64,000 nt of DNA, from the IMG/VR virus record IMGVR_UViG_3300030372_003010. One strand, written 5' to 3'. Origin of the DNA: an uncultured virus (IMG/VR IMGVR_UViG_3300030372_003010). Taxonomy: Duplodnaviria; Heunggongvirae; Uroviricota; Caudoviricetes. Shown piece after piece: positions 2 to 41,224 of this stretch (within the stretch, counting starts at the first letter, position 1; every line of letters starts with the position of its first letter). The position numbers and the translations under genes are program-made. Below the pieces are notes generated by a model that worked only from the letters and a program-made list of their open reading frames with translations, made no database searches and was not told the origin of the DNA.

Positions 2-694
2 ACTAATCCTTCAAAAAGACTTACATATCTTACAAATAAAGAAGAAAAAGTAAACTTTGAAATAGAAGGTACAGAAATGTTATTGAGAGAGCTGAACATC
101 TTTTGCACAACTACTGCTAATCACAGAGCTGTATTAGAACAATTAAAACAGTTGGCTATGAATAATAATACTACAGGTGCTAGTATTTATGATTTAGGTC
201 AAATCATTCAATCTGATTCTGTAGCTGAACTATCTCATGTATTAAAAGAAAGTCAAGATAAGCAAGAGCAACAAAAACAACAAGAGATGCAACAAATGCA
301 ACAAATGCAACAACAGCAGGCTCAAGCTCAACAACAGTTGCAACAAACTAAACTTGATGCTGATGCACAAGAAGCAGAAAAAGAAAGACAAAAGGATATT
401 CTTATTGCAGAAATTAGAGCTGCAGGTTATGGTTCTATGGTAGATATAGATAAAAACCAAATGAATGACTATAGAGACGCTATGTCAGAAATTAGAAAGA
501 CTGATCAATATGCTCAACAAACTAATATACAAAGACAAAAGTTAAGTGATGATATGGTCAAACATTCTCAAAAAATGAGTATTGAGGAACAAAGAATTCA
601 AGCTCAAAGAGAAGTAGCTGATAAACAATTGCAAATAGCTAGAGAGAATAAAAACAAGTATGATGTCAAAACTCCTAAAAAGAATAAGAAGTAA
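2..694 (+). CDS. Portal protein, C-terminal part (gene starts upstream of the window)
   Basis: The frame of ORF 77..694 is open back to position 2 (TNPSKRLTYLTNKEEKVNFEIEGTEM...). It has a Gln-rich coiled-coil C-terminus and lies upstream of the scaffold-like and capsid genes, as portal genes do in crAss-like phages. The call rests on synteny and composition. Confidence 0.7.
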   Translation, partial: TNPSKRLTYLTNKEEKVNFEIEGTEMLLRELNIFCTTTANHRAVLEQLKQLAMNNNTTGASIYDLGQIIQSDSVAELSHVLKESQDKQEQQKQQEMQQMQQMQQQQAQAQQQLQQTKLDADAQEAEKERQKDILIAEIRAAGYGSMVDIDKNQMNDYRDAMSEIRKTDQYAQQTNIQRQKLSDDMVKHSQKMSIEEQRIQAQREVADKQLQIARENKNKYDVKTPKKNKK

Positions 695-1045: not shown

Positions 1046-1055
1046 AACCAACAAA
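1046..1055 (+). promoter_or_regulatory. AACCAACAAA leader box
   Basis: Exact 10-mer ending 10 nt before ATG 1065, followed by the variant AACTAACAAA. The same box occurs at 4072, 4087 and 10123. Confidence 0.5.
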
Positions 1056-1064
1056 AACTAACAA

Positions 1065-2366
1065 ATGGCAGAAGAATTAAATGAGGAAACTCAAGTACAA
1101 GACTCTACAACGGTAGAGGAAGTAGATGTAAACCTTGATGAGATTTTTGGTCAACCAGGCGCTGAGAGTATAATGTTACCAGCAGAAGAAGTTGAACCGG
1201 AACCACAAGAAAAAAAGTCAAACATCTTCTCTAAACCAGAAGAACTTGACACAACGTTCATTGACAAGACTGAAACTACAACTGAAGAAGTAGGTGCAGA
1301 GACAGAGCAACCAGCAACGCCTGAACAAAAAAAGGAACTGGTTGATGAAGCACTAGCTGAACTAGATGATGCAATTACTGAAGAGGAAGTAGGAGAAACT
1401 AAACCAGGTAGACGTAAAACTGATAAAAGTGGTCTAGTTGATTTAGCTCATAAAATGATTGAAGAGGGTACTCTTTTTGGCTTTGATGATGATAAGCCTA
1501 TTGAAGAATACACTACTAAAGATTTTAGAGAACTGTTTGAAGCTAACTTTCAAGAAAGAGAAGCTCAAATTAGAGAAAATACTCCAAAAGAATTTTTTAA
1601 TTCATTGCCTTCTGAACTTCAAGTAGCTGCTAAATATGTTGCAGATGGTGGTACAGACATGAAAGGATTGTTTAGAACTTTATCACATGTTGAAGAAGTT
1701 ATACAACTAGATCCAGAAAATGAAAATCATCAAGCAGAGATTGCAAGACAATATCTTACAGCAACTAATTTTGGTACAGCAGAAGAAATAGAAGCAGAAA
1801 TACAAGATTGGGCAGATATTGAGAGGCTAGAGAAAAAAGCTAAACAGTTTAAACCAAAGCTTGATAAAATGCAAGAGAAGATGGTTGCTAATAAGTTAGC
1901 TGAACAAGAGCAAAAGAAAGTTCAACAAGAACAAGCTGCTGCACAGTATATGGATAATGTATATACTACACTTTCACAAGGCAAATTAGGAGACATTAAA
2001 TTAGATAGAAAGCTACAAAATCATTTATACTCTGGATTAGTACAACCTAATTATCCTTCTATATCAGGAAAGCCTACAAATTTATTAGGGCATCTTCTTG
2101 AAAAATATCAGTTTGTAGAACCAAGACATGACCTTATTGCAGAAGCACTTTGGTTACTTTCAGATCCAGACGGATATAAAAACAAAGTTAAAAGTCTTGG
2201 TAGTCAAGAAGCTGTTGCAGATACAGTAAGAAAACTGAAAACTGCACAGTCTAAGAAAATTAGTTCTTCATCTCAAGCACAAGCTTCTGGCAATGCTAAG
2301 AGAAAAGGGACAACAAGAAAACAACCAACAGTACAAAGAAAGAACAATATGTTCAAAAGATTTTAA
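1065..2366 (+). CDS. Acidic scaffold-like / head assembly protein
   Basis: Very acidic, probably disordered N-terminus, helical core and basic C-tail. It lies between the portal and major capsid genes, as the conserved crAss-like gene at this position does. Confidence 0.6.
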   Translation: MAEELNEETQVQDSTTVEEVDVNLDEIFGQPGAESIMLPAEEVEPEPQEKKSNIFSKPEELDTTFIDKTETTTEEVGAETEQPATPEQKKELVDEALAELDDAITEEEVGETKPGRRKTDKSGLVDLAHKMIEEGTLFGFDDDKPIEEYTTKDFRELFEANFQEREAQIRENTPKEFFNSLPSELQVAAKYVADGGTDMKGLFRTLSHVEEVIQLDPENENHQAEIARQYLTATNFGTAEEIEAEIQDWADIERLEKKAKQFKPKLDKMQEKMVANKLAEQEQKKVQQEQAAAQYMDNVYTTLSQGKLGDIKLDRKLQNHLYSGLVQPNYPSISGKPTNLLGHLLEKYQFVEPRHDLIAEALWLLSDPDGYKNKVKSLGSQEAVADTVRKLKTAQSKKISSSSQAQASGNAKRKGTTRKQPTVQRKNNMFKRF

Positions 2367-2394: not shown

Positions 2395-4014
2395 ATGGCA
2401 ACTCCAGTTTTAAACAATGGTATCTTTCTACGGGATACAGCGTACAGCGCAAGTTCACACGTAGACTCTTACCACCTGGTTAACATGTTGAAGGATGCAG
2501 AACCAATGGATTTAGGTCCAGTGGACTTATGGGCAATGTCTCAGAAAGTTGAAATGCCTCTTTATCAAATGTCTAGCTTTGGTGGCAAAAATGTAATTGA
2601 AGTAGATAATGCTCGTGGAGAGTATAAGTGGCAAACACCTGTGTCAAGAGATCTTCCTTATATAATTGAGGATATTGATCCAACTTTGGCAAATACTAGA
2701 GGTGCTGATGGTACTACTTTCCGTATCAAGATGAGCTGCAGAGAATTTGGACATGGTGATATCATCACTTATGACAAATACAATGGAGCTGAACTTTACA
2801 TTACTGATGAGGATATTCTTCCTACAGGTGATGGGTTTATCTACACAGTTCAGATGGTTAATAATAATAACTCTGCAACTTTTGATTCTGCATTTTTAGC
2901 AAATGGAACTAAATACTTTAGAAAAGGTTCTGCTAGAGGTGAGTATGGTGAAAGATTTTCTGACATCACAACAGGAACAGGTTTCCGTGAATTCTACAAC
3001 TATGTAGGAGGAGCAGAAGCTCACGTTCACTACTCAGTTTCTTCTAGAGCTGATCTTATGATCAAAGGTGGAATGAATGCTGATGGTACTATTCCTGTAA
3101 CTGAGATCTGGAGATCTTCAGGAGATAGCATGGATAGTTCTATAACTTCATTAGAAGATATGGTATCAAAAATGGGTAAAGATGGTGTAAAGAAAGCATT
3201 TGATAATGGTGATCTTTCTAGATCTTTCCTTACTAACATGGAAGCTGCTCACTTAACTAAGGTATCAAATGATATTGAGTCTTACCTAATGTGGGGACAA
3301 GGTGGTAGAGTTAGACAAGACGGACCAGATGATTTAAGATTATCTGTAGGTCTTTGGCAACAACTTGATAACTCTTTCAAAAGAGTATACAATAAGAATA
3401 ACTTTAACCTTGACTTATTCCGTTCTGAGATTTATAACTTCTTTAATGGAAAAGTTGAATTCCAAGGTCCAGATCCAAGTAGACAATTGATTGTACAAAC
3501 TGGTATGGGTGGAATGAGAATGGTTAATGAAGCTATCAAACGTGAAGCTGTAGCATCAGGTCTTGTAATTCAAGCTGCTGATATAGGTGCAATCACTGGT
3601 CAAGGAATGGATCTTAACTTTGGTTTTGCTTACACTTCTTATGTGATTCCTTTCTTAGCTAACGTTAAGTTTGTACTTAACCCAGCATTTGATAATGTTA
3701 ATACTAATGATATTGAGAACCCAATTATTGATGGATTCCCATTATCTTCTTATTCATTCATTATCTTTGACATCACTGATAATACTAACGATAACATCTT
3801 CTTATTGAAGTTATCTTGGGATAATCAACTTAAGTGGTGGTATCAAAATGGTACAATGGACTACATGGGACGTAGCCAAGGATTCCAGTCTTCTGGTCAA
3901 TTCAATGGATACAGAGTCATGATGTCTCAAACAATGCCAGCTGTATGGGTAAAAGACCCAACTAAGGTATTGAAGATTGTTATGAGAAACCCAGTTACTG
4001 GAGGATCATTCTAA
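2395..4014 (+). CDS. Major capsid protein (crAss-like, HK97 fold)
   Basis: 539 aa; N-terminal DSYHL..L and EYKW motifs, a central LMWGQG and C-terminal VWVKDPTKV resemble crAss-like major capsid proteins. Followed by a strong terminator. Confidence 0.85.
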   Translation: MATPVLNNGIFLRDTAYSASSHVDSYHLVNMLKDAEPMDLGPVDLWAMSQKVEMPLYQMSSFGGKNVIEVDNARGEYKWQTPVSRDLPYIIEDIDPTLANTRGADGTTFRIKMSCREFGHGDIITYDKYNGAELYITDEDILPTGDGFIYTVQMVNNNNSATFDSAFLANGTKYFRKGSARGEYGERFSDITTGTGFREFYNYVGGAEAHVHYSVSSRADLMIKGGMNADGTIPVTEIWRSSGDSMDSSITSLEDMVSKMGKDGVKKAFDNGDLSRSFLTNMEAAHLTKVSNDIESYLMWGQGGRVRQDGPDDLRLSVGLWQQLDNSFKRVYNKNNFNLDLFRSEIYNFFNGKVEFQGPDPSRQLIVQTGMGGMRMVNEAIKREAVASGLVIQAADIGAITGQGMDLNFGFAYTSYVIPFLANVKFVLNPAFDNVNTNDIENPIIDGFPLSSYSFIIFDITDNTNDNIFLLKLSWDNQLKWWYQNGTMDYMGRSQGFQSSGQFNGYRVMMSQTMPAVWVKDPTKVLKIVMRNPVTGGSF

Positions 4015-4033
4015 TCTAACAATAGATTCTTAT

Positions 4034-4068
4034 AAAAGGGGGAGGGCTATTCCTCTCCCTTTTTTTTT
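4034..4068 (+). terminator. Rho-independent terminator after the capsid gene
   Basis: Stem GGGGGAGGG / TCCTCTCCC, loop CTAT, followed by a run of T. Confidence 0.85.
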
Positions 4069-4071
4069 AAT

Positions 4072-4096
4072 AACCAACAAAATAATAACCAACAAA
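4072..4096 (+). repeat. Two tandem AACCAACAAA leader boxes (TAATAACCAACAAAA unit)
   Basis: Exact copies at 4072-4081 and 4087-4096, between the terminator and ATG 4108. Confidence 0.7.
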
Positions 4097-4107
4097 AATA
4101 AAAACCA

Positions 4108-5127
4108 ATGGCAAAAGAACAATTTACAATGGTGGAAACACCATCAGCTAGTAGAGAATCAAAGATTACTATTAGACCCTATTTTGATGCAAGATCAGAA
4201 AATATGGGATTAGAAAATTATGGATTAAGTTTATTTGATGGAATAAAACATCAAGAACAATTAGCATGTCTAGAGATTAATGGAATTAATAGATATCTAA
4301 CAGGTCTTAATGAGTTTGCTCCAGAAGTCAAAAAACTTTCCAAAGAAGCTAGAGAAGCTAAGGTAAGACAGATTAGAGAATCTGTTGCAGATCTAGAAGC
4401 AGAATTAGCTTCTAACATACTTGATCCAGAAGACAAAGATTTTTGGAATAAAGTAAAATTATTAAAACCAGATAACAATGAATTCTGGAATAAGATAGAC
4501 ATAAGTGTAGGAAATGAACCTTTGTTTTTAAATATGTCTGATCCTTATGATAGAATTAAATTGCATGCTATTGAGGCAGGTGGGTTTTCTTTAATTGCAA
4601 AAAGTTATGAAGATGCAAAAGCAAAACCTAGACCACCTAAGTTTTATTTAGATAAAGATGCAGAAACTGTATCTAGTAGAACTGAATATAAGAAGCTTAG
4701 AAATAAAGCACTATCTGAGCTACAAAAGTTGTTTGATAAGAATAGTACTAAATTATTCTATGTAGCAAAAGTTGTAGATGCAAGTAGTACACAATATAAA
4801 AAGTCTACTCCACTGGATATTTTATATGAAAATATGGATACATATATTCACGGAGATGGAGCTGAAAGCAATATGGAAAGAGCGGTTAATACTTTCTTAG
4901 ATGTAGTAAATTCAGACATGGAATCATTAAAAATTAGAAGTATTGTTAAAGATTCCAGCTTTTTTAAGTATATTATTACTAAGAGCGATGGACATATCTA
5001 TCACAACAAGAAGAATGTCATGTTGGGAAGAAATGTTTCTGATACAGTTGAATTCTTAAAGAATCCTCTTAATGAAGATGTCTTAGATGATTTAACTAAA
5101 GAGTGTGAAAATTATTGGAAAAGTTAA
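4108..5127 (+). CDS. Conserved crAss-like morphogenesis protein downstream of the capsid gene
   Basis: 339 aa; FWNK repeats, a KFYL motif and C-terminal LGRN...EFLKNPLNEDV. Called by synteny with the gene following the capsid gene in crAss-like phages. Confidence 0.55.
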   Translation: MAKEQFTMVETPSASRESKITIRPYFDARSENMGLENYGLSLFDGIKHQEQLACLEINGINRYLTGLNEFAPEVKKLSKEAREAKVRQIRESVADLEAELASNILDPEDKDFWNKVKLLKPDNNEFWNKIDISVGNEPLFLNMSDPYDRIKLHAIEAGGFSLIAKSYEDAKAKPRPPKFYLDKDAETVSSRTEYKKLRNKALSELQKLFDKNSTKLFYVAKVVDASSTQYKKSTPLDILYENMDTYIHGDGAESNMERAVNTFLDVVNSDMESLKIRSIVKDSSFFKYIITKSDGHIYHNKKNVMLGRNVSDTVEFLKNPLNEDVLDDLTKECENYWKS

Positions 5128-7028: not shown

Positions 7029-7040
7029 TTTTGTATATTA
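7029..7040 (+). promoter_or_regulatory. Putative phage promoter motif TTTTGTATATTA
   Basis: Variant of the recurring intergenic motif. Confidence 0.5.
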
Positions 7041-7322: not shown

Positions 7323-8020
7323 TGTTAAATAGCGCAATAGTCATAAAATTAAAACAAAGAGTTAACAAGCTTGATAGTCAAGACTATGATAATATAGAAT
7401 GTTGGCAAGCTGTTGAGGCTTTTAATAAAGCACAAGTAGAATGGTGCAGAAGACAATTGCATGGTCTTAATATTGTTAAAGAAGGTGATGAACAATCTAC
7501 TAGAAGAAAAGATGATCTTCAGGTATTACTTTCTGATAATCAACTTTCATTGACTGATAAGAAAGATCATTTCCGAGGATCTATTCCTGAAAACTATTTA
7601 CAGTTTAAAAGAGTAGATGTATTTGCATGTCAGGATTGTTGTAAAGATAGAAGAATGACGGTATATCTTGCAGAGGAAGGTAATTTAAATCAATTGTTAA
7701 GAGATAAATCTAAGCAACCTTCATTTGAATGGGGAGAAACTTTTATTACATTAATTGATAATCAAATTCATATTTACACTAATGATGAATTTGAAATATC
7801 ACAAGCAGACTTAGTCTATTATAGACAACCTAGAAAAATTCAAATACAAGGTTGTGTAGATCCTTATACTAATCAAGAAACTTTGGTAGAAGTAGAATCT
7901 GAATTTAAGGATGATATTATTGAAGTAATTATTGATGAAGCTGTTAGTATATTAGCTGGAGATATAGAATCACCAGTACAATATCCAAGAGGTTCGCAAA
8001 CTGCTGAAAGAAATAATTAA
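7322..8020 (+). CDS. Putative head-tail adaptor / ring protein
   Basis: NKLDSQ...FNKAQ N-terminus, YYRQP, and C-terminal EVIIDEAVSIL are typical of adaptor/ring proteins; synteny supports this. Confidence 0.55.
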   Translation: MLNSAIVIKLKQRVNKLDSQDYDNIECWQAVEAFNKAQVEWCRRQLHGLNIVKEGDEQSTRRKDDLQVLLSDNQLSLTDKKDHFRGSIPENYLQFKRVDVFACQDCCKDRRMTVYLAEEGNLNQLLRDKSKQPSFEWGETFITLIDNQIHIYTNDEFEISQADLVYYRQPRKIQIQGCVDPYTNQETLVEVESEFKDDIIEVIIDEAVSILAGDIESPVQYPRGSQTAERNN

Positions 8021-8045: not shown

Positions 8046-8067
8046 TTTAGTATATTATAGTATATTA
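8046..8067 (+). promoter_or_regulatory. Tandem putative promoter motif TTTAGTATATTA-TAGTATATTA
   Basis: Two adjacent copies of the TAGTATATTA core upstream of ATG 8101. Confidence 0.6.
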
Positions 8068-10122: not shown

Positions 10123-10132
10123 AACCAACAAA
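10123..10132 (+). promoter_or_regulatory. AACCAACAAA leader box
   Basis: Exact copy ending 3 nt before ATG 10135. Confidence 0.5.
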
Positions 10133-10134
10133 TT

Positions 10135-10290
10135 ATGGCAGCAGGATCAAGATGTTCAAACTGTGGAAAACAATTATCATGCGGATGTCAAAAAAGAACG
10201 GCATCAGATGGAAGACAAGTTTGTTCAACATGTATAGCAGCTTATGAAGCTAAAATAAAACAAGGTAACTTAAACAAATTTGTAAAATAA
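10135..10290 (+). CDS. 51-aa Cys-rich (Zn-finger-like) protein, missing from the ORF track
   Basis: MAAGSRCSNCGKQLSCGCQKRTASDGRQVCSTCIAAYEAKIKQGNLNKFVK, with CxxC-CGC-CxxC. It fills the gap between two genes exactly. Confidence 0.75.
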   Translation: MAAGSRCSNCGKQLSCGCQKRTASDGRQVCSTCIAAYEAKIKQGNLNKFVK

Positions 10291-10291
10291 A

Positions 10292-13159
10292 ATGTCACTT
10301 ATATATTATCACTATAGAGTAACTGATTGTTGCAATGGTAGTAACGTTATAGATATTAGGTTAACAGTTGATCCAACAACACCCGATCCTACAGCATTAA
10401 GTGGTGTTTATACTTGGGATATTGCTGATACTATAGTAGCAGGAGCTGGTGGAATATTTGAATTTATTAATGGAAACTGTTATCTTTTTGAATTTAGAGC
10501 TTTAACAGGTCTTTTATATCCATTTATTAGTGATAGCTCAATAACAGCGGTATCTTTAGGAAAGTTTTCAGACTGTACTTCAGCTGGAGCCTTGTGCCCA
10601 GATTGTGGTCCAAAAGACCAAAATTATATAAAAGCAGACCCTTGTTGTGGAGGTCCTGCTATATTTTTTAGAGGTGAGCCTTATATAGGGGGGAGTCAAG
10701 GAGGTTCAATGCCTTCATTTAGTCTTTTACAATACACGGGTGTACAGCAATATAATATTGTTGCACCTCCTGTACAAGGGTATCCTTTATTTCCAGGAGA
10801 ATGTTATACTTGGTCAGTTGGTACAGTTGGTGATGGTTTACCTGGAGCACCTGCTGATATAGCAGAATATAATCTTTTATTTTATCCTCCAGATGCTAGC
10901 GCAGATATACAGTTTATACATGCTGATGATTGTACTTATTCTGATTCAGATGTAGGATGTCCAGTTTGTGATCCTATATGTTATCTATTAACTGCTTGTG
11001 ATGGAACACAAATACAAACTACTATAGAAGACTTTGCAGCTGCTGTAGGAACTTACGTTACACTAGCAGGTTCTACAGAATCTTGGTTTGTTGAAGTAAA
11101 TGAAGGTGTTTGTACAGATCCTGTGCTAACTTTAGAAATAACTAGTTTTGAAGCAGAACCTTGTCCTTGCAACTGTTATGAAATAATTAGTGCTCCAGGA
11201 TTAGTTACATATATTGATTGTAATGGTGATCCTCAGTCTACATATGCTCCAGATAAGTTTTGTGCTCAGTCACCTCCTTTAGTAAAAGAAGTTCCTGGTG
11301 AACCTTCAGCTGTTATTGTTGAAAGAGGTCTTTGTGAGGATGGAGTTTGTGTTGAAAGATGTTTTCAATTAATTAATTGTGAACCTGAAAAGTATCCAAA
11401 TCAAAATGCAATACTAACCTCAACGCTCCAAAGTTTATTTAAATATATAAATCCAAGTTCTGTAGTTGAATTAGCAGGATATGAAGGATGTTGGACTGTT
11501 ACAGAAGCAACCTGCTTATGTGTATCTGTTAGTATAAACGGAATATCATATTTAGCTAATTATTCAGGAAGTACGCATAATAATGAAAAAGTATTTATTT
11601 TAGAAGTACTTGGAGTTACTTATTATATTTGGGCAAATGCTGCTGCAGGTAGTTGGATAATTAGTCAAAATGTAGGTAGTACTATACCCGCACAAGTAAT
11701 AGGAGAAATAAAAGGAGGTATTACAAGTTGCCCAATAGCAGATGAAACCGTTTGGGTAGTAGGAGTTCTTCCTGATGGTAATCCTGTAACAGCAATAATA
11801 ACTTCACCATGTTCTGATGATAATGCTTGCAAATGTCCTGTAGATGTAACAGTATTACAAGAATATACTAGCTGTATAGAATGTATAGGTCCTATAGCAT
11901 ATAAATTAACGGATTGTGAAAGTGGAGAAGTTACATACAGCATTCAAGATTTATCTGCATATATAGGTAAAGTTATAAAAGATGATTGTAATTGCTGGTT
12001 TGTAGAACAGATTACGCATGAACCACCAAGCAGTGTTACTATAAGTAACATTATAGAGTTTACAGATTGCCCATCATGTCTAGCTACATTTTATACATTA
12101 ACGCCTTGTGATCCAGCACATGCAGATGCAATAATAATTACTCCTTCAAATTTATCACCTTATTTAAATCAAGTTGTTCAAGTAGAAGGTTGTATAGGTT
12201 GCTATACTGTTGAACTTTATGCAGGTGTAGGACAACCTCCTAGTCAACAGCCTGTAGAAGTAACAGTTGCTTTTGAAACATGTACAGATTGTGAAACTTT
12301 AGTAACAAGATGTTCAACTGTTTTTAATACAACTACAAAAGAACAAGTATATTCATACATAGATATTAATGGAGATACTGCATCTACAGAAACAGTTCCT
12401 TCAGGAAAGTCTTCTTTAAGACATTGTGTACAAAAATGGGATGAATCAATTCCTGGTATATTTAATTACTATGGAGATTGTAATGTATTTGAAGTAATTG
12501 GTGCTGCTAATGGTTGTGACTGTGTTACTATCTCAATTGAAGGAGAAGAAGGAGCATCTTTTATAGGTGATGCAAACTGGAATGGTACAACTAATGATGG
12601 TAAAAATGTTTATTCTTTTGAAATTACTGTATTAGGTGTAAACATCACTTATTATATATGGTATTCTCAAGCTCTTAATGGATGGTTTATAGGTCAAACT
12701 ATAGGTACAGTTGCTCCTAGTGACATAGGTAGTTTTGAATCAACAGAGGATTGTCCAATATTTACAGATGCACAGTGGGTAAAAGGTGTTTGGCCTGATG
12801 GTCAAGCTCTTATATTGTTAGAAACTATAGAGAGTGAAGAGTGTGTTAAACAAAAAACTAAAATAGGAGAGTGTCCGCAGTATTTTCCAAATAACAGAAA
12901 AGTAAAACCTGGATATAATACACCTATATGCTCTTCAGAAAAGTATGATAAAATTACATGTAACTTTGCAGAAATAGCTTATAAAGAAGCATTAGCATTA
13001 AGATACGGTATATCTAATTGCTGTCCTGAATTAAATGAAAAATGGTTAATAAGTAAAGAACTAATAGAATTACAAGCTTTAAATGATCCTCAGTTCCCAT
13101 GTCCTAAAACAACTGATAGTTGTGTTAAGACTGGGTCTAATTCTTCTTGCAATTCTTAA
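10292..13159 (+). CDS. Cys-rich modular structural / fibre protein
   Basis: Repeated (C/Y)xLxxC...CxxC modules, two copies of a ~100-aa beta domain, and a C-terminal LRYGISNCC motif. Confidence 0.55.
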   Translation: MSLIYYHYRVTDCCNGSNVIDIRLTVDPTTPDPTALSGVYTWDIADTIVAGAGGIFEFINGNCYLFEFRALTGLLYPFISDSSITAVSLGKFSDCTSAGALCPDCGPKDQNYIKADPCCGGPAIFFRGEPYIGGSQGGSMPSFSLLQYTGVQQYNIVAPPVQGYPLFPGECYTWSVGTVGDGLPGAPADIAEYNLLFYPPDASADIQFIHADDCTYSDSDVGCPVCDPICYLLTACDGTQIQTTIEDFAAAVGTYVTLAGSTESWFVEVNEGVCTDPVLTLEITSFEAEPCPCNCYEIISAPGLVTYIDCNGDPQSTYAPDKFCAQSPPLVKEVPGEPSAVIVERGLCEDGVCVERCFQLINCEPEKYPNQNAILTSTLQSLFKYINPSSVVELAGYEGCWTVTEATCLCVSVSINGISYLANYSGSTHNNEKVFILEVLGVTYYIWANAAAGSWIISQNVGSTIPAQVIGEIKGGITSCPIADETVWVVGVLPDGNPVTAIITSPCSDDNACKCPVDVTVLQEYTSCIECIGPIAYKLTDCESGEVTYSIQDLSAYIGKVIKDDCNCWFVEQITHEPPSSVTISNIIEFTDCPSCLATFYTLTPCDPAHADAIIITPSNLSPYLNQVVQVEGCIGCYTVELYAGVGQPPSQQPVEVTVAFETCTDCETLVTRCSTVFNTTTKEQVYSYIDINGDTASTETVPSGKSSLRHCVQKWDESIPGIFNYYGDCNVFEVIGAANGCDCVTISIEGEEGASFIGDANWNGTTNDGKNVYSFEITVLGVNITYYIWYSQALNGWFIGQTIGTVAPSDIGSFESTEDCPIFTDAQWVKGVWPDGQALILLETIESEECVKQKTKIGECPQYFPNNRKVKPGYNTPICSSEKYDKITCNFAEIAYKEALALRYGISNCCPELNEKWLISKELIELQALNDPQFPCPKTTDSCVKTGSNSSCNS

Positions 13160-13191: not shown

Positions 13192-14856
13192 ATGAAACCT
13201 TTAAATTTAGATAATAAACCTTGTAGCCCTATCTCTTCAAACTGTATAGTTTGGCAGGGACCTGACATTCCATGCATTAATTTATGTACTGGAGATAGTG
13301 TTTCTGAGGTAGTACATAAACTAGCTACAGAGCTTTGCGCAGTATTAGATACATTAAAAGTTTCTAACTATGATTTAACATGTTTTAGTACAATAGCTTG
13401 TGGTCCCCAAGACTTTCAAGCTTTAGTTCAGTTTATAATTGATCAGCTTTGTGCAGTTCAAAGTGGAACAACTGCTTCTTCAACTGCATCTTCTAAAGGA
13501 GCTACTTTTAGTATAGCTCGTGCTAGTGAAACTTGTCCAGATTGTGTAGTAACAGTGCCTGAAGAATTTGTGGTAGGTACTCAAAAAACAATGCAGTTAG
13601 TAGATTATGCTGTAACAATGGGTGAAAAAATTGCTAGCATTGTTTCAGAAATAAGTTTGATGAATGATCAAATTACTGACATAACTATCAGAGTAACAAA
13701 TTTAGAAAATAAACCAGATCCTACATTTCCCGCATTAACACTTCAGTCAAAATGTGATATTGGAACAGTACCTGCTTCAACAGATAGCGAGGTTCAGGTG
13801 ATTTTAGAACAGTTTTTTGATGCATTATGGTGTGATTTTTATACAGTAACAGGTACTATAGCTTCATTAACAACTGCTATTGGTAGTCAATCAATTGCAA
13901 ATACAGATCTTACATTAACTAATCCTGCTGCAAATTATCAAACTCAATATCCAACATGGGTCACAACTCCAGGAACAGTATCAGATACTATAACAAACAT
14001 ATGGTTAGCTATTTATGATATTTATGCAAGTTTACCACCTACAGCGGTAACTGTTCAAGAGACAAATACTGTACAATTAAGTATAACAGCAGATTTAGAA
14101 ATATCAGCAAAAGTTAAGGATACGGGTTGGGTAGATCTTAATGGGTTTGATTTTTATTCTGGAACAGCTACTAAACCTCAAGTAAGAAGAATAGGAAATG
14201 TTCTTCACTTTAGAGGGTATGTTTTTGTGCCACTTGATAATGGTGCAGGAGGTATTCATGGATTATCTAGTTATTCTGATTATAATAATATACCAACTTG
14301 TATTCCAGGAACTAGTGGAGCAGGTGCAGTATCAATTAGTACTGGTGGAGTAATTTCGTTTAATGGTGGATTAAGTGTAATACCTACAGCAGTAACAACA
14401 AATAATTTAGATGCTGATTATAGAATGCCTTATCCTGCTGTATTAAATAGACCTATTATAATTACAGGAACAGTAGGTACTTCTTTAACAGCTGCATCTA
14501 GAATAGCAATAACAGAAGCAGGTGTATTGTATATTGCATCTCTAAGAGATCAAGAACAAATTTCTTCTGCTACAGGAGTTATAGGAGGCTCTCATCTAAG
14601 ATTTATAACAAGTAATGTTAGATCAGGAGAAAGTATTCCTAATTATATTAATACTGATACTGATATTCATAACTTCCCAGCAGCAGGTGCAAATAACCTT
14701 GTTGGAGAAACTGACTTTGATGGATCAGATTATACATGGCCTTTTACATGTGATGCAGGAGACTCTGGTAACTTAGGAGGATTTTTTGCAACTATAGAAG
14801 GTTTAACTGCATTTTTAGCTTGTGATGCAGACATTGTAGAGACTACATGTTATTAA
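13192..14856 (+). CDS. Tail fibre / spike-like protein
   Basis: N-terminal CIVWQGPDIPC motif, coiled coil, and a DTGWVDL...VRRIGNVLHFRG motif typical of fibre head domains. Confidence 0.6.
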   Translation: MKPLNLDNKPCSPISSNCIVWQGPDIPCINLCTGDSVSEVVHKLATELCAVLDTLKVSNYDLTCFSTIACGPQDFQALVQFIIDQLCAVQSGTTASSTASSKGATFSIARASETCPDCVVTVPEEFVVGTQKTMQLVDYAVTMGEKIASIVSEISLMNDQITDITIRVTNLENKPDPTFPALTLQSKCDIGTVPASTDSEVQVILEQFFDALWCDFYTVTGTIASLTTAIGSQSIANTDLTLTNPAANYQTQYPTWVTTPGTVSDTITNIWLAIYDIYASLPPTAVTVQETNTVQLSITADLEISAKVKDTGWVDLNGFDFYSGTATKPQVRRIGNVLHFRGYVFVPLDNGAGGIHGLSSYSDYNNIPTCIPGTSGAGAVSISTGGVISFNGGLSVIPTAVTTNNLDADYRMPYPAVLNRPIIITGTVGTSLTAASRIAITEAGVLYIASLRDQEQISSATGVIGGSHLRFITSNVRSGESIPNYINTDTDIHNFPAAGANNLVGETDFDGSDYTWPFTCDAGDSGNLGGFFATIEGLTAFLACDADIVETTCY

Positions 14857-14903
14857 AAAGTAAAAAATTAAAAATTATATATATAAATTAAAATAAAAAT
14901 AAA

Positions 14904-16403
14904 ATGGCTTGTACAAATTGTAATACCCCTAGTTGTGGATGCTCTGGAACTCATGTGGTTTCAGTAACGTGTCCACCAGCCTGCTCTGAAGTGTTTAACA
15001 TGCAATGCATTGTTTATACAGGAGTAGATTTAACGTGTGATGGAGATACTGTAATTTCTAGAAATGATTATTTAGATGAGGCTATCACAAAATTAGTAAA
15101 CTATGTATGTAGTAAAGTGGCACCACCTGCTAGTGTAGTAGCGGGTAGCACGTTTATTGATGTAGTTCCTACAACAGATCCTGTTACAGATGTAACAACT
15201 TATACTGTATCTGCTGATATGGCTCAATTTGAAGTATACTTTGCTCCCATCATTACTAATCAAATTTTAGCAAAAATATTAGCTGGACCTGCAATTGATG
15301 TAGCAGTAGATACTGGAGCAGGAACAGTAACTATATCTCATCAAGATACATCTACTGTGGTTTCTCCACTAGCTGTTACTGGTACAGGTAATACCTTTTT
15401 ACAAGCTGCTAGTTTTAGTTTTGATACATTTGGTCATGTAACGGGTGCAGCATTTACAACTGGTACAGTTACTCACCAAAATAATTTTGTAACTGCTAAA
15501 ATTAATCCAGATGCAGGATTTACATGGGGACCAAATAATAATCCTACAGATCTTCAAACTGCAGAGGCTCCTGGAGATACATTAAACTTTGTAGCAGGTG
15601 AAGCAATCTATTTAAATGGAAGCACCGTTCCTAGTACAGATGCGATTAGAATTTCATTTGCAGGTTTATCAATAGATTCTGCTTCTGGTCTTAGCGGTGA
15701 TGGTACTGCAGCTAGTCCATTGGTAAATAGTAAAAATGTATGGACAAGATTTACTGCTGATGATGGTACTTTAGTAAATGCTGATACTACTAATGATGTC
15801 TTAGCTGTTGTTGGAAATGGAGGTGGTATTCAAACTACAATAGACCCACTAACAGATACTTTAAAAATTGAAAACACGCTTCCAAATGTTGATCAAAATG
15901 TATGGACAAGGTTTGTTGGTGATGTTGGTGCTGTAGATGCTGATACTGACACTGATATTTTAAATGTTATTGGGGCAGGTGGTATTACAACTACAATAGA
16001 TCCTGCAACGGATACTTTGGAAATTGAAAATACTTCTCCAGCAACAAGTGTAGCATTAACTTCAGCTGGAGGTACTGAAACTTTAGTAAATGATGGTACA
16101 GGACCTGCGTTGGCAAATAAAGGTCTTACTGCTGGTGATGGTATTAGTCTTAGTAGTGATGCAGTTTCTGTTACTATAGTTGCTGATGTACAAAGACAAC
16201 TGCTATCTGGTGTTGGTTGGACTGCTGGAACCGTTACTCCACTTTCTATTACTCACGGTGTTGGTGAGACTTATGTTCAAATAAGAGCCTTTGATGGTTT
16301 AAATGATGTAACAGAAGGTTTACTTATAGCTTTGGTAAATTCTACAACTTTTACAATAGATCATCCTACTAGAAATGTAACTGACTTATTAGTTATAGGA
16401 TAA
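14904..16403 (+). CDS. Tail / head fibre protein with internal repeats
   Basis: N-terminal CIVYTGVDLTC (paralogous to ORF 13192), DTFGHVT motif, tandem ~50-aa repeats, and a C-terminal ITHG...VQI domain. Confidence 0.6.
   Translation: MACTNCNTPSCGCSGTHVVSVTCPPACSEVFNMQCIVYTGVDLTCDGDTVISRNDYLDEAITKLVNYVCSKVAPPASVVAGSTFIDVVPTTDPVTDVTTYTVSADMAQFEVYFAPIITNQILAKILAGPAIDVAVDTGAGTVTISHQDTSTVVSPLAVTGTGNTFLQAASFSFDTFGHVTGAAFTTGTVTHQNNFVTAKINPDAGFTWGPNNNPTDLQTAEAPGDTLNFVAGEAIYLNGSTVPSTDAIRISFAGLSIDSASGLSGDGTAASPLVNSKNVWTRFTADDGTLVNADTTNDVLAVVGNGGGIQTTIDPLTDTLKIENTLPNVDQNVWTRFVGDVGAVDADTDTDILNVIGAGGITTTIDPATDTLEIENTSPATSVALTSAGGTETLVNDGTGPALANKGLTAGDGISLSSDAVSVTIVADVQRQLLSGVGWTAGTVTPLSITHGVGETYVQIRAFDGLNDVTEGLLIALVNSTTFTIDHPTRNVTDLLVIG
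15735..16034 (+). repeat. Tandem ~50-aa coding repeat (NVWTRF...AD...D.L..G.GGI.TTIDP.TDTL.IENT x2)
   Basis: Two copies starting at 15735 and 15897, similar at both DNA and protein level. Confidence 0.8.
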
Positions 16404-16410
16404 TAAAACT

Positions 16411-16480
16411 GTCGCAGGTTTGTTGGTTTCTGTGGCTAACAACAAGAAAGCCCTCACACTAGTGGGGGTTTTCTTTTTTT
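16411..16480 (+). ncRNA. Candidate structured 3'-UTR RNA / sRNA: hairpin with loop UUUGUUGGUU, then a terminator
   Basis: Stem GTCGCAGG (16411-18) pairs with TCTGTGGC (16429-36). The loop is the exact reverse complement of the AACCAACAAA leader box. Confidence 0.45.
16444..16480 (+). terminator. Rho-independent terminator
   Basis: 14-bp stem AAGAAAGCCCTCAC / GTGGGGGTTTTCTT, loop ACTA, followed by a T tract. Confidence 0.85.
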
Positions 16481-16514
16481 ACTATATTTGTTATACTTGC
16501 TAATCTCATTAATT

Positions 16515-16526
16515 TTTAGTATATTA
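16515..16526 (+). promoter_or_regulatory. Putative phage promoter motif TTTAGTATATTA
   Basis: Exact copy immediately after a terminator and 10 nt upstream of ATG 16537. Confidence 0.65.
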
Positions 16527-16536
16527 TTTACATAGT

Positions 16537-17118
16537 ATGGAACCATTTAAAACACCAAACTTACAGGCTCCTAGATTTAGAGCAGACACTTATGAAGTTC
16601 TAAATAAAGAGTTCTTTGACAGATTTAGAGAAAAATATCCTAGGTATAATAAATTAAAGGATAAAGAAATAAGATCAATTATTAAATCTTTTAATAAATT
16701 GGCTTTTGAAACAGTGATTGATAATAGAAATGGTGTAGAACTACCTGAGTCATTAGGTTGGCTTTTTATAGGAACTTGTCAAGCTAGTAAAAAGAAAAAT
16801 GTTGATTACGCTAAATCTAGAAAATACGGTGTTAAGGTTTCAAATAAAAATTGGGACAGTGATGGTAAGCTAGCTAAGATTTTTTTTACAAACCGTGAAA
16901 TAAAACATAAATTTAGAAATAGAGAGTTTTGGGGATTCATAGCTTGTAGAGAATTTAAAAGAGCAGTTGCTAAAACATATCCAGAAAACTGGAACAACTA
17001 TATAGTAGTTGATCCAAGACAAAAATTAAAATTTGCTTTTGGTAAAAAAGTAGCTAATGAAATAAGATTAAAAAAGCAAGAACATGCTTTAAAGGACTAT
17101 AATGAATTTGACTTATGA
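16537..17118 (+). CDS. IHF/HU-like DNA-binding protein
   Basis: Basic 193-aa protein. Helices followed by GVELPESLGWLFI resemble the HU/IHF 'V.L.GFG.F' segment. IHF-like genes precede tail genes in crAss-like phages. Confidence 0.5.
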   Translation: MEPFKTPNLQAPRFRADTYEVLNKEFFDRFREKYPRYNKLKDKEIRSIIKSFNKLAFETVIDNRNGVELPESLGWLFIGTCQASKKKNVDYAKSRKYGVKVSNKNWDSDGKLAKIFFTNREIKHKFRNREFWGFIACREFKRAVAKTYPENWNNYIVVDPRQKLKFAFGKKVANEIRLKKQEHALKDYNEFDL

Positions 17119-17780
17119 GCACAACAGTTGGAGAAGCAATATCTAGAGTAAGAAATACTCTTAAAGCTGTTAAGGAAGATCCTTTCTTAACTGATAGAAC
17201 TATTTACTATTCTATTCTTAAATACGGTCAGTCTCTTATGAAGAGAGAAGATAACCAACTTAGGTTAATGAAGATTAGCAATATTTTTAAAACAATGCCT
17301 TATGTTGAACTTATTGAAGTAGATAAGGTAGATGCTGCTTGTTATGGGGTATACTCAGGATGTTATTTTAAAAGAACAAAAGAAAAGCTTCCAAATCTTT
17401 TAACTGGTATACAGGGACCTATATTTAGAACAGTATCTTCAATTGACGGTTCTAAAGAATTATTTAGAACTGATCCCGGTACTTTTGTTTCTATGACTAA
17501 AACTACAACTTTTAAATATAATAAAAGACAATACTTTTGGTTTCTTGACGGCTATCTATACTTTCCTAACTTAGAATGGGATGCAGTTAAAATTGAAGCA
17601 ATATTTGAGAATGATGTTGAAACATGTGACTCTGATAAGTGCATTATACGTCAAGACCAATCATTAAATATACCAGACTATTTATTTTCTGAAATAGAAC
17701 AATACGTAGTAAAAGAATTAACCATGACCATGCAAGTTCCTACAGATGGACAGGATGATGGACAAAATACACTTAGATAA
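17115..17780 (+). CDS. Tail ring / adaptor protein
   Basis: 221 aa; YFWFLDGYLYFPN and IEAIFE motifs; synteny within the tail module. Confidence 0.5.
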   Translation: MSTTVGEAISRVRNTLKAVKEDPFLTDRTIYYSILKYGQSLMKREDNQLRLMKISNIFKTMPYVELIEVDKVDAACYGVYSGCYFKRTKEKLPNLLTGIQGPIFRTVSSIDGSKELFRTDPGTFVSMTKTTTFKYNKRQYFWFLDGYLYFPNLEWDAVKIEAIFENDVETCDSDKCIIRQDQSLNIPDYLFSEIEQYVVKELTMTMQVPTDGQDDGQNTLR

Positions 17781-18814
17781 TGGATTATAACTATACTTTA
17801 AAATATAGAACCTTTGATCAACTTTTAGAAGATGTAACTGTAGATTTAAGTTCATTAGCTTTAGAAAATATGATTGAGCCGCAGCAGCTAATTAAGCTTG
17901 CTAAAAAACTTAATTATGATTTAGGGCTTAGAATTAATCAACAAAAAGAGGTTATACTTGATGTTTGTCATGGTAAAGTAAAACTACCTGATGACTTTTA
18001 TACATTCAACTATGCATTAATTTGCGGAGACTATGAAAGAAAAATTGGTTATGATGGTATAGCTGGGGGAACTACTATGATAGAAGTACCAATTACAACA
18101 GGCACTCTTCCTGTAACATATGATGACTTTCCAAAAGATGTTCCTGATCCTTGTGATACAAATGAACCAACACCTTGTTGCGATGATAAAGGTAATGAAG
18201 GCACGTGTTTGGTTAATAATCCTAATAAACCTTATGGAGATGCTAATGTAAAACCTAGAGTTTTTATGAACTGTAAGGGAGAATCTTATGAATTAATTCA
18301 AGTAATTAATGCTTCAGAAACTTTACTATATAAACAACTGCTTCCTTTGAAAATGAAGGCTAGTCAGAATATTGATTGTGAGTGTCCCAACTTATATCAT
18401 AATACTGAAAATGAAGGTTGGATTAAACATGGATTTCTTTTTACAAACTTTAAAACAGGTAAAGTATATTTAAACTACCAAGGTCAGATGGAAGATGAAG
18501 AAGGTAACTTGCTAGTACCTGATCATGATCTAATAAATGAATATTATGAATATGCATTTAAATCTAGAATTCTTGAAAATCTTTATATGAATGGTGAAGA
18601 TGTTGCTCAAAGAATGCAACTTGTTGAACAAAGATTGAGAGGCGCTAGAAATAATGCATTAAGCGTAGTTAATACACCTAACTTTAGAGAGTTAAAAGAA
18701 ATAACAAATGCTAATAGAAAAGCAATGTATGCTAGGTATTACAACATGTTTAGTTCTCATTCTCCAAATTTAATTAATAGACGTGTAAGACATAATATTC
18801 ACAGCAATGGCTAA
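17780..18814 (+). CDS. Tail tubular protein
   Basis: VKLPDDF, TNFKTGKVYLNY and DEEGNLLVPD motifs; directly upstream of the stabilisation/muzzle gene, as in crAss-like phages. Confidence 0.6.
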   Translation: MDYNYTLKYRTFDQLLEDVTVDLSSLALENMIEPQQLIKLAKKLNYDLGLRINQQKEVILDVCHGKVKLPDDFYTFNYALICGDYERKIGYDGIAGGTTMIEVPITTGTLPVTYDDFPKDVPDPCDTNEPTPCCDDKGNEGTCLVNNPNKPYGDANVKPRVFMNCKGESYELIQVINASETLLYKQLLPLKMKASQNIDCECPNLYHNTENEGWIKHGFLFTNFKTGKVYLNYQGQMEDEEGNLLVPDHDLINEYYEYAFKSRILENLYMNGEDVAQRMQLVEQRLRGARNNALSVVNTPNFRELKEITNANRKAMYARYYNMFSSHSPNLINRRVRHNIHSNG

Positions 18815-34280: not shown

Positions 34281-34292
34281 TTTAGTATATTA
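34281..34292 (+). promoter_or_regulatory. Putative phage promoter motif TTTAGTATATTA
   Basis: Exact copy 16 nt upstream of ATG 34309. Confidence 0.65.
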
Positions 34293-40500: not shown

Positions 40501-41224
40501 TTATTTAGATCCAACTAAGAAAGCTGCAGATATACAATCTCAGTATGCTCAGAACTTAAAAACAGCATCTTCATTTGCCGGACCTCAAGCTTTAGGTTCA
40601 ACTATGTCTAGAATGTCTGGTGATGCTGCATCAAAATCTACAGCTGAAATTAATAAAACAGGCATGGATAATGTTAATCTTTCTAATCAGTTTGCTTTAA
40701 AGACTGCTGAAACGTTAAATAAACAAAACCTTATGAATACTAAGTTGGATAAAACTTATTATGATGAGCTTGCAACAAAAGATGCTAGAGATAGACAAGA
40801 AAAACTTGCAGCTAGAATAAATAGAAGAAAACTTTATACAACAGCAATAGGAAATAGAGCTCAGACACAAGCATTAAATACAATAAATCAAGAGTATAAT
40901 GTAGATCCTACTACTGGTGGATTTGTAACTAGAACTAATACTACTAGAACTCCTAGTGGTGCTGGAGGTGGAATGACAAAATTACAATTGATGGAGATGT
41001 TTATAAATAGAGGGTATTCTAAAGAAGAAGCTACAAATGCAGCTAACTCTATATATGATAATCAGGGCAAAACTTCAAATACTAATGCTGATTATGATCT
41101 TATAAAACAAAATAAAGGTTATGGAACTTCTGGATTAAATCCTAGCAAGGGTGCTATGAGTAGATATGGTGGACAAATGCCTTTAGACTTATTTGTTAAT
41201 GGAGGCAATGTGTATCCATTTTAA
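37511..41224 (+). CDS. Cargo / ejection protein (EAExGE...GKRHSEGG...IFSD domain, Met/Gln-rich repeats)
   Basis: N-terminal ANLEAESGE / HSEGGV / FIFSD domain, as I recall from crAss-like cargo proteins; MQ-rich helical repeats; coiled-coil C-terminus. Confidence 0.55.
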   Translation: MKYKVRIKRAPMQKARTGAQVDYGLSTPVTAMGGADYGRQPKSEYATTSTIGAIDREDANLEAESGEIVFGDINGDTFPETNKIVGKRHSEGGVPLNLPSGTFIFSDTKSMKIKDCEILKMFNKPCGKRSYTPAKLAQVFDINAYREILQDPNSDKIDVRTAERMIRNYTVKLGALALAQESLKGFPDGIPEVAKPYMEVAGIKEEDVLPPPELTQTIEAVENEVQKKQPGNPDEQTGAPNQDMMASAEEMNQGNPVAAPMNPQGQPSPMAEPGMMQPQDQMMRFGGNYSGLDKFLGRAQEGMQQPSPEEMMMMEQQAMQEQGQPQMQDGQEQIMQLMQAVGQALEQGQDPVEVMAQLIQDQLPPEIIVQIFTQLGMPEEEVVQSLQMIMQQMQGGQPSQEEMMMPPQQQMMEYGGSYSNLNKFIDGGEEMMMQEQAMAEEAPMNQAAGQDEMMQLVQGVMQALESGMPLEELTMNVLSSGISPELLMQVLVEVGIDEREAMEAVQNAVAEMSVAMQEGASMQEEMPMEQMAMMRDGGSLPSYQSEGEVVELNRDDFDTEKQFRRAIFDARRDGKKIVDSKGRPLSEEREYMPYDAEKMDPKGYYAHKFGKKNADGEYVMTDDQKNIAVQSYLMDKMLEDDDAVDLWMAEVDDIAAVYNDPDRVDLKKKYWKNGMSPDKVAQELMGDSSATWAGLDPDVKRKAMVNSYRKQSDQALYLQANKVDPRMWKNNGDKYKTFADIQAFNNDPKNKGAEIKNPETGEPITTAAEYTNVQNWYKTNVGLDADDADHNLRNHFSSKTLFADNVDADGRPIYGDNPRYGKKTVLAEQMGHLGFSSVAQKKRFAKEGKPGGYTDPDKIFHSQGFKIAEAGDGDETAMFGNKHATSIDDVEGNTDVGMGNAYIPVGLKWGEAPKKDAIPCYCMNKDGEKVLTGEYEEEGKPCKPCPPIKIEKDPPAKAGWWLQDTINTMGAFGDASFAGKGMMPFHQQVELANARATYLDPTKKAADIQSQYAQNLKTASSFAGPQALGSTMSRMSGDAASKSTAEINKTGMDNVNLSNQFALKTAETLNKQNLMNTKLDKTYYDELATKDARDRQEKLAARINRRKLYTTAIGNRAQTQALNTINQEYNVDPTTGGFVTRTNTTRTPSGAGGGMTKLQLMEMFINRGYSKEEATNAANSIYDNQGKTSNTNADYDLIKQNKGYGTSGLNPSKGAMSRYGGQMPLDLFVNGGNVYPF

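Follow-up and report, generated by a model that had tools for sequence, protein, structure and literature searches.

A conserved 3′-UTR hairpin with a loop complementary to a box in assembly-gene leaders: a candidate trans-acting RNA of crAss-like phages

Within the genome of an uncultured tailed phage (IMG/VR record IMGVR_UViG_3300030372_003010), a hairpin lies between the stop codon of a variable gene and the terminator behind it, and its loop is the exact reverse complement of a box that stands directly upstream of several start codons. The locus thus raises the question whether loop and box pair as RNA and, if they do, what such pairing would bring about. The initial annotation of a stretch of 64,000 nucleotides, referred to here as the window, had proposed a phage-encoded trans-acting RNA or a long-range mRNA–mRNA contact that represses or activates the translation of selected morphogenesis genes, possibly with a switch based on pairing of the loop in cis. 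Upon re-examination, the positions given there for the stop codon (16403), the stem, the loop, the terminator and the boxes proved correct throughout (Table 1).

Table 1. Positions of the hairpin, the boxes and neighbouring features, counted from the first nucleotide of the window
Feature	Position	Strand	Basis or remark
Portal C-terminus	77-691	+	PHROGs
Copies of the motif TTAGTATATTA	1028-1038, 7944-7954, 8047-8067, 16516-16526, 34282-34292		near-matches at 7030 and 13166
Box AACCAACAAA in the leader of the scaffold-like gene (ATG 1065)	1046-1055	+	8 nt after promoter-like TATATT
Second, imperfect box AACTAACAAA, abutting ATG 1065	1056-1065	+	1 mismatch
Partial box AACCAACA in the 3′ coding end of the scaffold-like gene	2323-2330	+	65 nt before the capsid ATG
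Major head protein (capsid)	2395-4011	+	PHROGs
Terminator behind the capsid gene	4034-4063	+	tandem boxes directly 3′
Two tandem boxes before ATG 4108 (gene after the capsid gene)	4072-4081, 4087-4096	+	
Box in the leader of the 51-aa Cys-rich (Zn-ribbon-like) gene (ATG 10135)	10123-10132	+	
RNA hairpin	16411-16436	+	fold prediction, conservation, covariance model
Hairpin 5′ arm GTCGCAGG	16411-16418	+	
Hairpin loop TTTGTTGGTT, the 'anti-box' UUUGUUGGUU	16419-16428	+	10 nt
Hairpin 3′ arm TCTGTGGC	16429-16436	+	
Single-stranded linker with conserved AACAA (16438-16442)	16437-16443	+	
Intrinsic terminator, 14-pair stem-loop (16444-16475), then T run to 16480	16444-16480	+	
Promoter-like block for the next gene (ATG 16537): TATATTTG, then TTGCTA, 17 nt, TATATT	16483-16525	+	

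The hairpin and its setting

The window belongs to an IMG/VR contig of 110,525 bp with a completeness rating of 97%, and the runs in which this contig occurs carry the labels marine, seawater, sponge or marine-sediment metagenome. All long open reading frames (ORFs) of the window lie on the + strand, and the genes are tightly packed behind leaders that are A/C-rich and free of GGAG-type sites. Several virion structural proteins are named by PHROGs, an 1855-aa protein among them. Among isolates, the capsid protein comes nearest to its counterpart in Leptolyngbya phage Lbo-JY46 (28.5% identity), and with crAss-like capsid proteins it shares 22–26% identity over part of its length only; 'crAss-like' is accordingly used here as a broad-sense label. 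Searches among isolated phages returned no match, neither at near-identity with positions 14000–18000 nor at the protein level with the 193-aa gene that neighbours the hairpin. After the structural genes, giant ORFs of 1855, 2562, 2411 and 3503 aa follow in succession (18807–62753), the first of which matches virion structural PHROGs; the 2562-aa ORF has no PHROG family. ATGGC (Met-Ala) is found at 15 of the 27 gene starts examined in the window, which suggests a preference at positions +4 and +5.

The ORF 14904–16403, which ends with the stop codon 16401–16403, had been called a fibre gene. What stands of this label is the position of the gene and its variability between relatives, exemplified by 52% identity at unequal lengths to positions 3001–4350 of the related locus L002, and these two properties are its only basis: no family match to the product was obtained in PHROGs or Pfam. 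The intergenic block and the next gene of L002, unlike the upstream gene, are 88–100% identical to those of the window. As the upstream gene has diverged while the intergenic block has been kept, the hairpin has at its 5′ edge what looks like a boundary of recombination, and the variable gene upstream of it is probably a receptor-binding gene. The promoter-like block that follows the terminator belongs to the conserved block and lies outside the RNA element. Its motif TTAGTATATTA has 20 matches at no more than one mismatch (7.8 expected), mostly before an ATG and in several cases with a TTG-type hexamer 17 nt upstream; it is also conserved in relatives and probably denotes promoters of the middle or late class, of the kind reported for phi14:2.

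Three of the eight pairs of the hairpin stem are G-U. The hairpin by itself has a folding energy of −9.3 kcal/mol (z = −2.9), and hairpin plus terminator constitute the minimum-energy fold (z = −5.25), with the linker 64–95% unpaired in the ensemble. The stretch 16444–16480 shows the hallmarks of an intrinsic (Rho-independent) terminator, namely a G+C-rich stem-loop, with G-C at six of its 14 pairs, followed by a T run. Like 3′-UTR-derived base-pairing sRNAs, the hairpin is located behind a stop codon and shares the terminator of the mRNA. Since no sigma-70-like promoter is predicted upstream of it, the release of a small RNA would need processing.

For comparison, related loci were collected as the sequence upstream of the 193-aa neighbour gene from IMG/VR (32 loci), from five more distant genomes and from metagenome contigs, the last found by protein alignment with the 193-aa gene (best 80 of 436 relatives). 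Loci were counted if they contained at least 120 nt of upstream sequence, by which six shorter ones were excluded. The hairpin is present in 112 of 112 loci, with neighbour proteins 50–100% identical to that of the window; 110 were found by pattern match and two by eye, namely L212 with one stem mismatch and L272 with a longer loop. Because some contigs occur in both collections, the independent count is that of the 67 distinct 84-nt sequences to which the 112 loci reduce. The order of stop codon, hairpin and terminator is the same in all relatives.

Seven stem pairs enter the alignment of the 67 distinct sequences, and 99.6% of their cells are paired. Three pairs are invariant, two vary on one side (U-G 37 / U-A 30 and G-U 44 / A-U 22) and one varies on both sides (C-G 37, U-G 23, U-A 7); these changes are pair-preserving transitions, including the series from C-G to U-G to U-A. 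In a control in which the 3′ partners were slid by 1–3 columns, paired cells dropped to 43–58%. G-U pairs are possible in the + strand RNA only and amount to mismatches in a DNA palindrome or on the other strand. The hairpin is a conserved sense-strand RNA structure under strong selection. The loop columns TTGTTGG are invariant in all 67 sequences, with conservation of at least 90% in the T's on either side. The adjacent terminator stem and spacer, by contrast, vary. The terminator stem also covaries (one pair, for example, is A-U 38 / G-C 21 / G-U 8) and has been rebuilt several times with compensatory changes. The linker columns A34–A38 of the alignment of relatives (A2), corresponding to AACAA, are invariant or nearly so. 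When three whole genomes were scanned with a covariance model built from the alignment, each gave exactly one strong match (97, 63.9 and 60.5 bits, the next match scoring at most 23.6). No lineage with an altered loop was found among these relatives, and a protein search started from a distant member added one new lineage with the same loop. Conservation of the stem-loop in relatives, with an invariant loop on a stem that changes in a pair-preserving manner, had been named in the initial annotation as a test of its proposal, and the hairpin has passed it.

Across the ensemble the loop stays about 90% unpaired, and it costs 0.12 kcal/mol to open; the element thus possesses an accessible seed that is conserved more strictly than its remainder, as is characteristic of 3′-UTR-derived sRNAs. 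The same openness disfavours the switch that had been envisaged on the basis of cis pairing between the loop and AACAA. The corresponding pseudoknot is improbable on account of both ensemble and geometry, since the 0–2 nt between stem and AACAA cannot span a helix of 7–8 bp.

The box in gene leaders

The box AACCAACAAA has five matches on both strands of the window where 0.36 are expected, and none of 100 shuffles reached this number. On the + strand it occurs, as had been claimed, at 1046, 4072, 4087 and 10123, and it occurs nowhere else on this strand; each time it is present as the exact reverse complement of the loop; these copies lie 2–11 nt before the ATGs at 1065, 4108 and 10135, and the fifth match is the inverted copy in the hairpin loop. 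All five exact copies fall within about 0.7 kb of clear intergenic DNA, calculated as the sum of the intergenic gaps minus three gaps with small ORFs. The mismatch of the imperfect copy AACTAACAAA is a C to T change with which G-U pairing to the loop is still possible. Over the whole 110,525-bp genome the 9-mer is found seven times: once in the loop and six times in a sense-strand leader right before an ATG. The box is therefore far more common in leaders than base composition predicts, which had been posed as a further test. The leaders outside the window are those of a 99-aa gene and a 65-aa gene (other strand); each box is in the sense of its own gene, and both genes are located far outside the late operon. 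A designation of the 99-aa gene as 'GroES-like' was considered and rejected, as no Pfam family is found at E ≤ 0.01 and sequence matches in the PDB reach only E values of 0.58–0.59.

No box adjoins the ATG of the capsid gene. Partial copies had been noted before this gene, at 2323, and before ORF 45000, and both are present. Whether the former belongs to the box set is uncertain, as conservation of the protein sequence Q/K-P-T could explain it. In the segment 2310–2335 and in the relatives L121–L124, one or two further copies of AACCAACA are seen about 65 nt before the capsid ATG; in L121–L124 they are kept despite differing surrounding protein sequence, and they could represent a distal site or simply conserved Q/K-P-T. 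The 51-aa Cys-rich ORF (10135–10290), with the arrangement CxxC ... CxC ... CxxC, is conserved and has no family match; its product could bind RNA or DNA and act as a partner in the hairpin–box system.

Post-capsid leaders were examined in the best 80 of 620 capsid relatives; 76 of them allowed delimitation of the leader, which yielded 59 distinct sequences. The exact 9-mer is present in 50 of these 59 (once in 26, twice in 23, three times in one) and absent from nine. In 42 of the 50 box-bearing leaders the last box ends 1–4 nt before the ATG. The succession of capsid stop codon, terminator and box is kept in relatives, while the terminator stems differ. In wide related loci, the Cys-rich gene has the box in 11 of 11 cases and the scaffold-like gene in seven of 11, an eighth locus (L130) having a copy that abuts an ATG. 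Two genomes at 50–53% identity carry the box of the scaffold-like gene within its first codons rather than before the ATG; in these (ATGGAAAATGTAAACCAACAAGAG) it lies at position 40985 of G004 and at position 16097, on the minus strand, of G003. In G004, TATATA is found just before the ATG of the scaffold-like gene, and either the true start codon or the start of the transcript may therefore differ from the one assigned. One lineage has the post-capsid box AACCAACAC together with an unchanged loop. Among internal box variants, transitions that preserve pairing are in excess by 8:4, a weak signal that is uncorrected for kinship. In the outgroup phage Lbo-JY46 the 8-mer is not enriched (six copies versus ten of the control), and two of its leaders that were read are A/C-rich and without a box.

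Candidate pairing and competing explanations

Both partners are accessible, as opening a box costs 0.18–1.1 kcal/mol compared with a median of 3.4 kcal/mol for 60 random 10-mers. The predicted net energy of loop–box pairing amounts to −11.3 to −13.4 kcal/mol. The box at 10123 and its flank can form 11 pairs with the loop, which is the longest match, and this box also provides the best predicted duplex (−14.6 kcal/mol). When start regions of 101 crudely called genes of the genome were compared, the box genes took the first five places for predicted duplex energy with the loop, separated from the sixth candidate by a small margin (−11.9 versus −11.5 kcal/mol). The seed is thus complementary to start regions over 9–11 nt at five gene starts, a further trait of 3′-UTR-derived sRNAs. 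Against full pairing it counts that a hairpin loop of 10–11 nt does not form a complete 10-bp helix without strain.

Because chance complementarity is very unlikely and a site in double-stranded DNA fits the data poorly, pairing between RNAs is the best reading of loop and box. The most probable mechanism, to which a probability of roughly 55% is assigned, is that an RNA derived from the 3′-UTR pairs in trans with the boxes, most likely repressing translation. The stretch 16411–16480 would represent the conserved 3′ end of a transcript carrying the variable tail genes 13192–16403, from which a species of about 70 nt may be released. The loop UUUGUUGGUU(U), which consists of U and G only, would act as the seed of a base-pairing regulatory RNA and form 9–11 pairs in trans with the box AACCAACAA(A), situated 1–13 nt before the start codon or, in some relatives, in the first codons. 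The predicted targets are the scaffold-like gene, the gene after the capsid gene, the small Cys-rich gene, the 99-aa gene and the 65-aa gene. Two of them cannot share the transcript of the hairpin, and pairing would consequently act in trans; of the two possibilities first put forward, the trans-acting RNA is favoured over a contact within one mRNA by the distant box genes, one of which is on the other strand, and the cis switch finds little support. Since the leaders lack structure of their own and the 30S subunit would cover the site of the duplex, repression of initiation is likelier than activation. Should the tail-gene transcript accumulate late in infection, the head-assembly genes would be turned down at that stage, and virion stoichiometry might be tuned in this way.

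Transcripts of the phage or its relatives were found in two marine metatranscriptome runs, as contigs of 89–621 nt that show neither RNA ends nor levels. Most of them cover the capsid gene (2900–4020) and derive from diverged relatives (most of them less than 95% alike), an excess that is as expected because of high capsid expression. Short contigs that differ at no more than one position are three in number and cover 11916–12075, 15448–15604 and 16254–16418; a metatranscriptome contig of 168 nt ends at 16418.

A more specific version of the trans-acting mechanism can be offered only tentatively. Here the AACCAACAA box would be a dedicated Shine-Dalgarno-independent ribosome-loading signal, masked by an RNA from the phage's own tail transcript, so that the system might serve a large aquatic crAss-like family as an RNA-based assembly timer: late transcription of the tail genes would shut off the scaffold and the other box genes, and the box-less capsid gene would stay on.

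The alternative that survives best, itself unlikely, separates the two elements. The box would be the family's Shine-Dalgarno-independent start signal, recognized by bS1 or a segment of rRNA, the hairpin would have a function of its own in protein binding or 3′-end stabilization, and the two would never pair, their complementarity being accidental or a relic of common origin. The leaders of the phage, A/C-rich and without GGAG-type sites, agree with such a signal, as does the locking of the box at 1–4 nt before the ATG that would be expected for a site read by the ribosome. C/A-rich translation enhancers exist in enterobacteria, the leaders of the outgroup Lbo-JY46 are likewise A/C-rich and lack the box, and five Bacteroidota genomes show a mild excess of box-plus-ATG (103 versus 64 for the control pattern). 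However, two conserved, exactly reverse-complementary sequences of 9–10 nt are estimated to arise by chance about once in 10^4 to 10^5, and the invariance of the loop would be left without explanation. Moreover, no loop-like stretch of at least 8 nt occurs in the 16S and 23S rRNAs of one Lutibacter and one Pedobacter genome, which may not be the host's, and the capsid gene, expectedly the most translated, lacks a box beside its ATG.

Next in rank, and also improbable, is a role of the hairpin as a cis-acting 3′-end element, either a protein site that modulates termination or read-through at 16444–16480 in the manner of a nut-type boxB–boxA or a structure protecting the 3′ end of the mRNA, the loop being recognized by a protein rather than by RNA. 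Protein-bound hairpins typically combine a variable stem with an invariant loop, the hairpin always precedes the terminator by 7–12 nt with the conserved AACAA after it, and it marks the border between two transcription units. This explanation does not account for the exact complementarity of the loop to a second conserved motif. The boxA-like motif of the Bacteroidota rRNA operons inspected, GTTC(A/T)TT(G/A)A(C/A)A, is unlike the phage sequence CTGTGGCTAACAAC, and no alternative pairing between the hairpin and an arm of the terminator has been kept, since the terminators are entirely different in sequence from one lineage to another.

Least probable is a double-stranded DNA site, at which a phage DNA-binding protein would read AACCAACAA in either orientation before certain genes and upstream of the promoter at 16497–16525. 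In its favour, loop and boxes make up one duplex site in opposite orientations, the promoter-like block begins about 70 nt downstream of the inverted copy, and one box has the gene of a small Cys-rich protein next to it. Against it, each of the six leader copies follows the sense of the gene it precedes, also where this gene is on the other strand; the boxes are located between promoter or terminator and ATG and hence in transcribed leader; and 37 + 23 + 44 stem cells are G-U, which would be mismatched half-sites in a DNA palindrome.

Known counterparts and significance

An Rfam search of the whole window yielded no family at its gathering score, GcvB and the c4 RNA of P1 and P7 included; sub-threshold matches around 16374–16515 (MicC, 31 bits versus a threshold of 90) overlap the terminator-like stretch. 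Scanning of bacterial and archaeal genomes with the loop plus one arm gave 59 matches, none of them in a hairpin–terminator context. Three further candidates found no support. For the loop as an rRNA mimic, the longest similar stretches measure 7 nt (16S) and 6 nt (partial 23S) in Lutibacter and 6 nt (16S and 23S) in Pedobacter, and none of them is at the 3′ end of 16S rRNA, with the proviso that these may not be the host's rRNAs. For a boxA/nut element, the rRNA leaders and spacers of one Lutibacter and one Pedobacter genome, which may not be hosts and thus provide a weak test, have a motif different from CTGTGGCTAACAAC. For the box as a general host leader motif, enrichment is only about 1.6-fold in five Bacteroidota genomes picked through chance matches, which are not known hosts.

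The closest likeness in way of working is to 3′-UTR-derived and G/U-seeded sRNAs of enterobacteria. DapZ was reportedly described as a base-pairing sRNA from a 3′-UTR by Chao and colleagues in 2012, and the G/U-rich R1 seed of GcvB is said to target C/A-rich elements at the start sites of ABC-transporter genes (Sharma and colleagues in 2007). Like these, the phage element is situated at the 3′ end of a coding transcript whose terminator it shares, and its seed, the most strictly kept part, is made up of G and U only and is complementary to C/A-rich sequences beside several starts. Unlike them, it shows no sequence relation to a known family at the Rfam gathering score, it carries its seed in a hairpin loop rather than in a single-stranded 5′ stretch, and it belongs to a lytic-type phage, whose own assembly genes would be its targets. 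To our knowledge, the probable host phylum, unlike the hosts of DapZ and GcvB, has neither Hfq nor Shine-Dalgarno pairing.

RNAIII and RsaE-type regulators of S. aureus mask the Shine-Dalgarno sequences of many mRNAs by means of C-rich hairpin loops. By analogy, one conserved hairpin loop may serve here as the common seed against a ribosome-loading motif shared by a regulon. The chemistry is the opposite, however, with a U/G loop and an A/C box; the box is not complementary to the 3′ end of 16S rRNA in Lutibacter and Pedobacter, which may not be hosts, and the regulator is of phage origin.

A precedent among phages is the c4 antisense RNA of P1 and P7 (Citron and Schuster 1990), of which a 2025 review states that loop-borne complements are thought to pair around a ribosome-binding site and thereby block translation (PMC12197685). 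The element shares with c4 that it is a phage-encoded candidate RNA containing a predicted complement to translation-start regions, whereas c4 has one target (ant) and acts in the immunity of temperate phages, compared with at least five virion or assembly genes here. Also unlike c4, the phage box is not a Shine-Dalgarno site, and no homology of sequence or structure is detected in Rfam. The element thus appears, by analogy, to resemble 3′-UTR sRNAs and c4 in its working without membership in their sequence families.

Control by base-pairing RNAs in phages is known mainly from temperate enterobacterial phages. The terms 'crAss', 'Bacteroid' and 'capsid' are absent from the searched text of the 2025 review on phage sRNAs (PMC12197685). 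Among the papers listed by literature searches, none deals with such an element in crAss-like phages, and a search with the box sequence brought up only unrelated primer sequences among the matches listed. The family in question is sizeable, with 620 capsid relatives and 436 relatives found through the neighbouring gene. Loop and box constitute a simple, directly testable pair of 10-nt sequences. If their pairing is real, it would show translation control where Shine-Dalgarno pairing is not used, and it would amount to an RNA regulon serving virion morphogenesis throughout a family within an abundant group of uncultivated phages.
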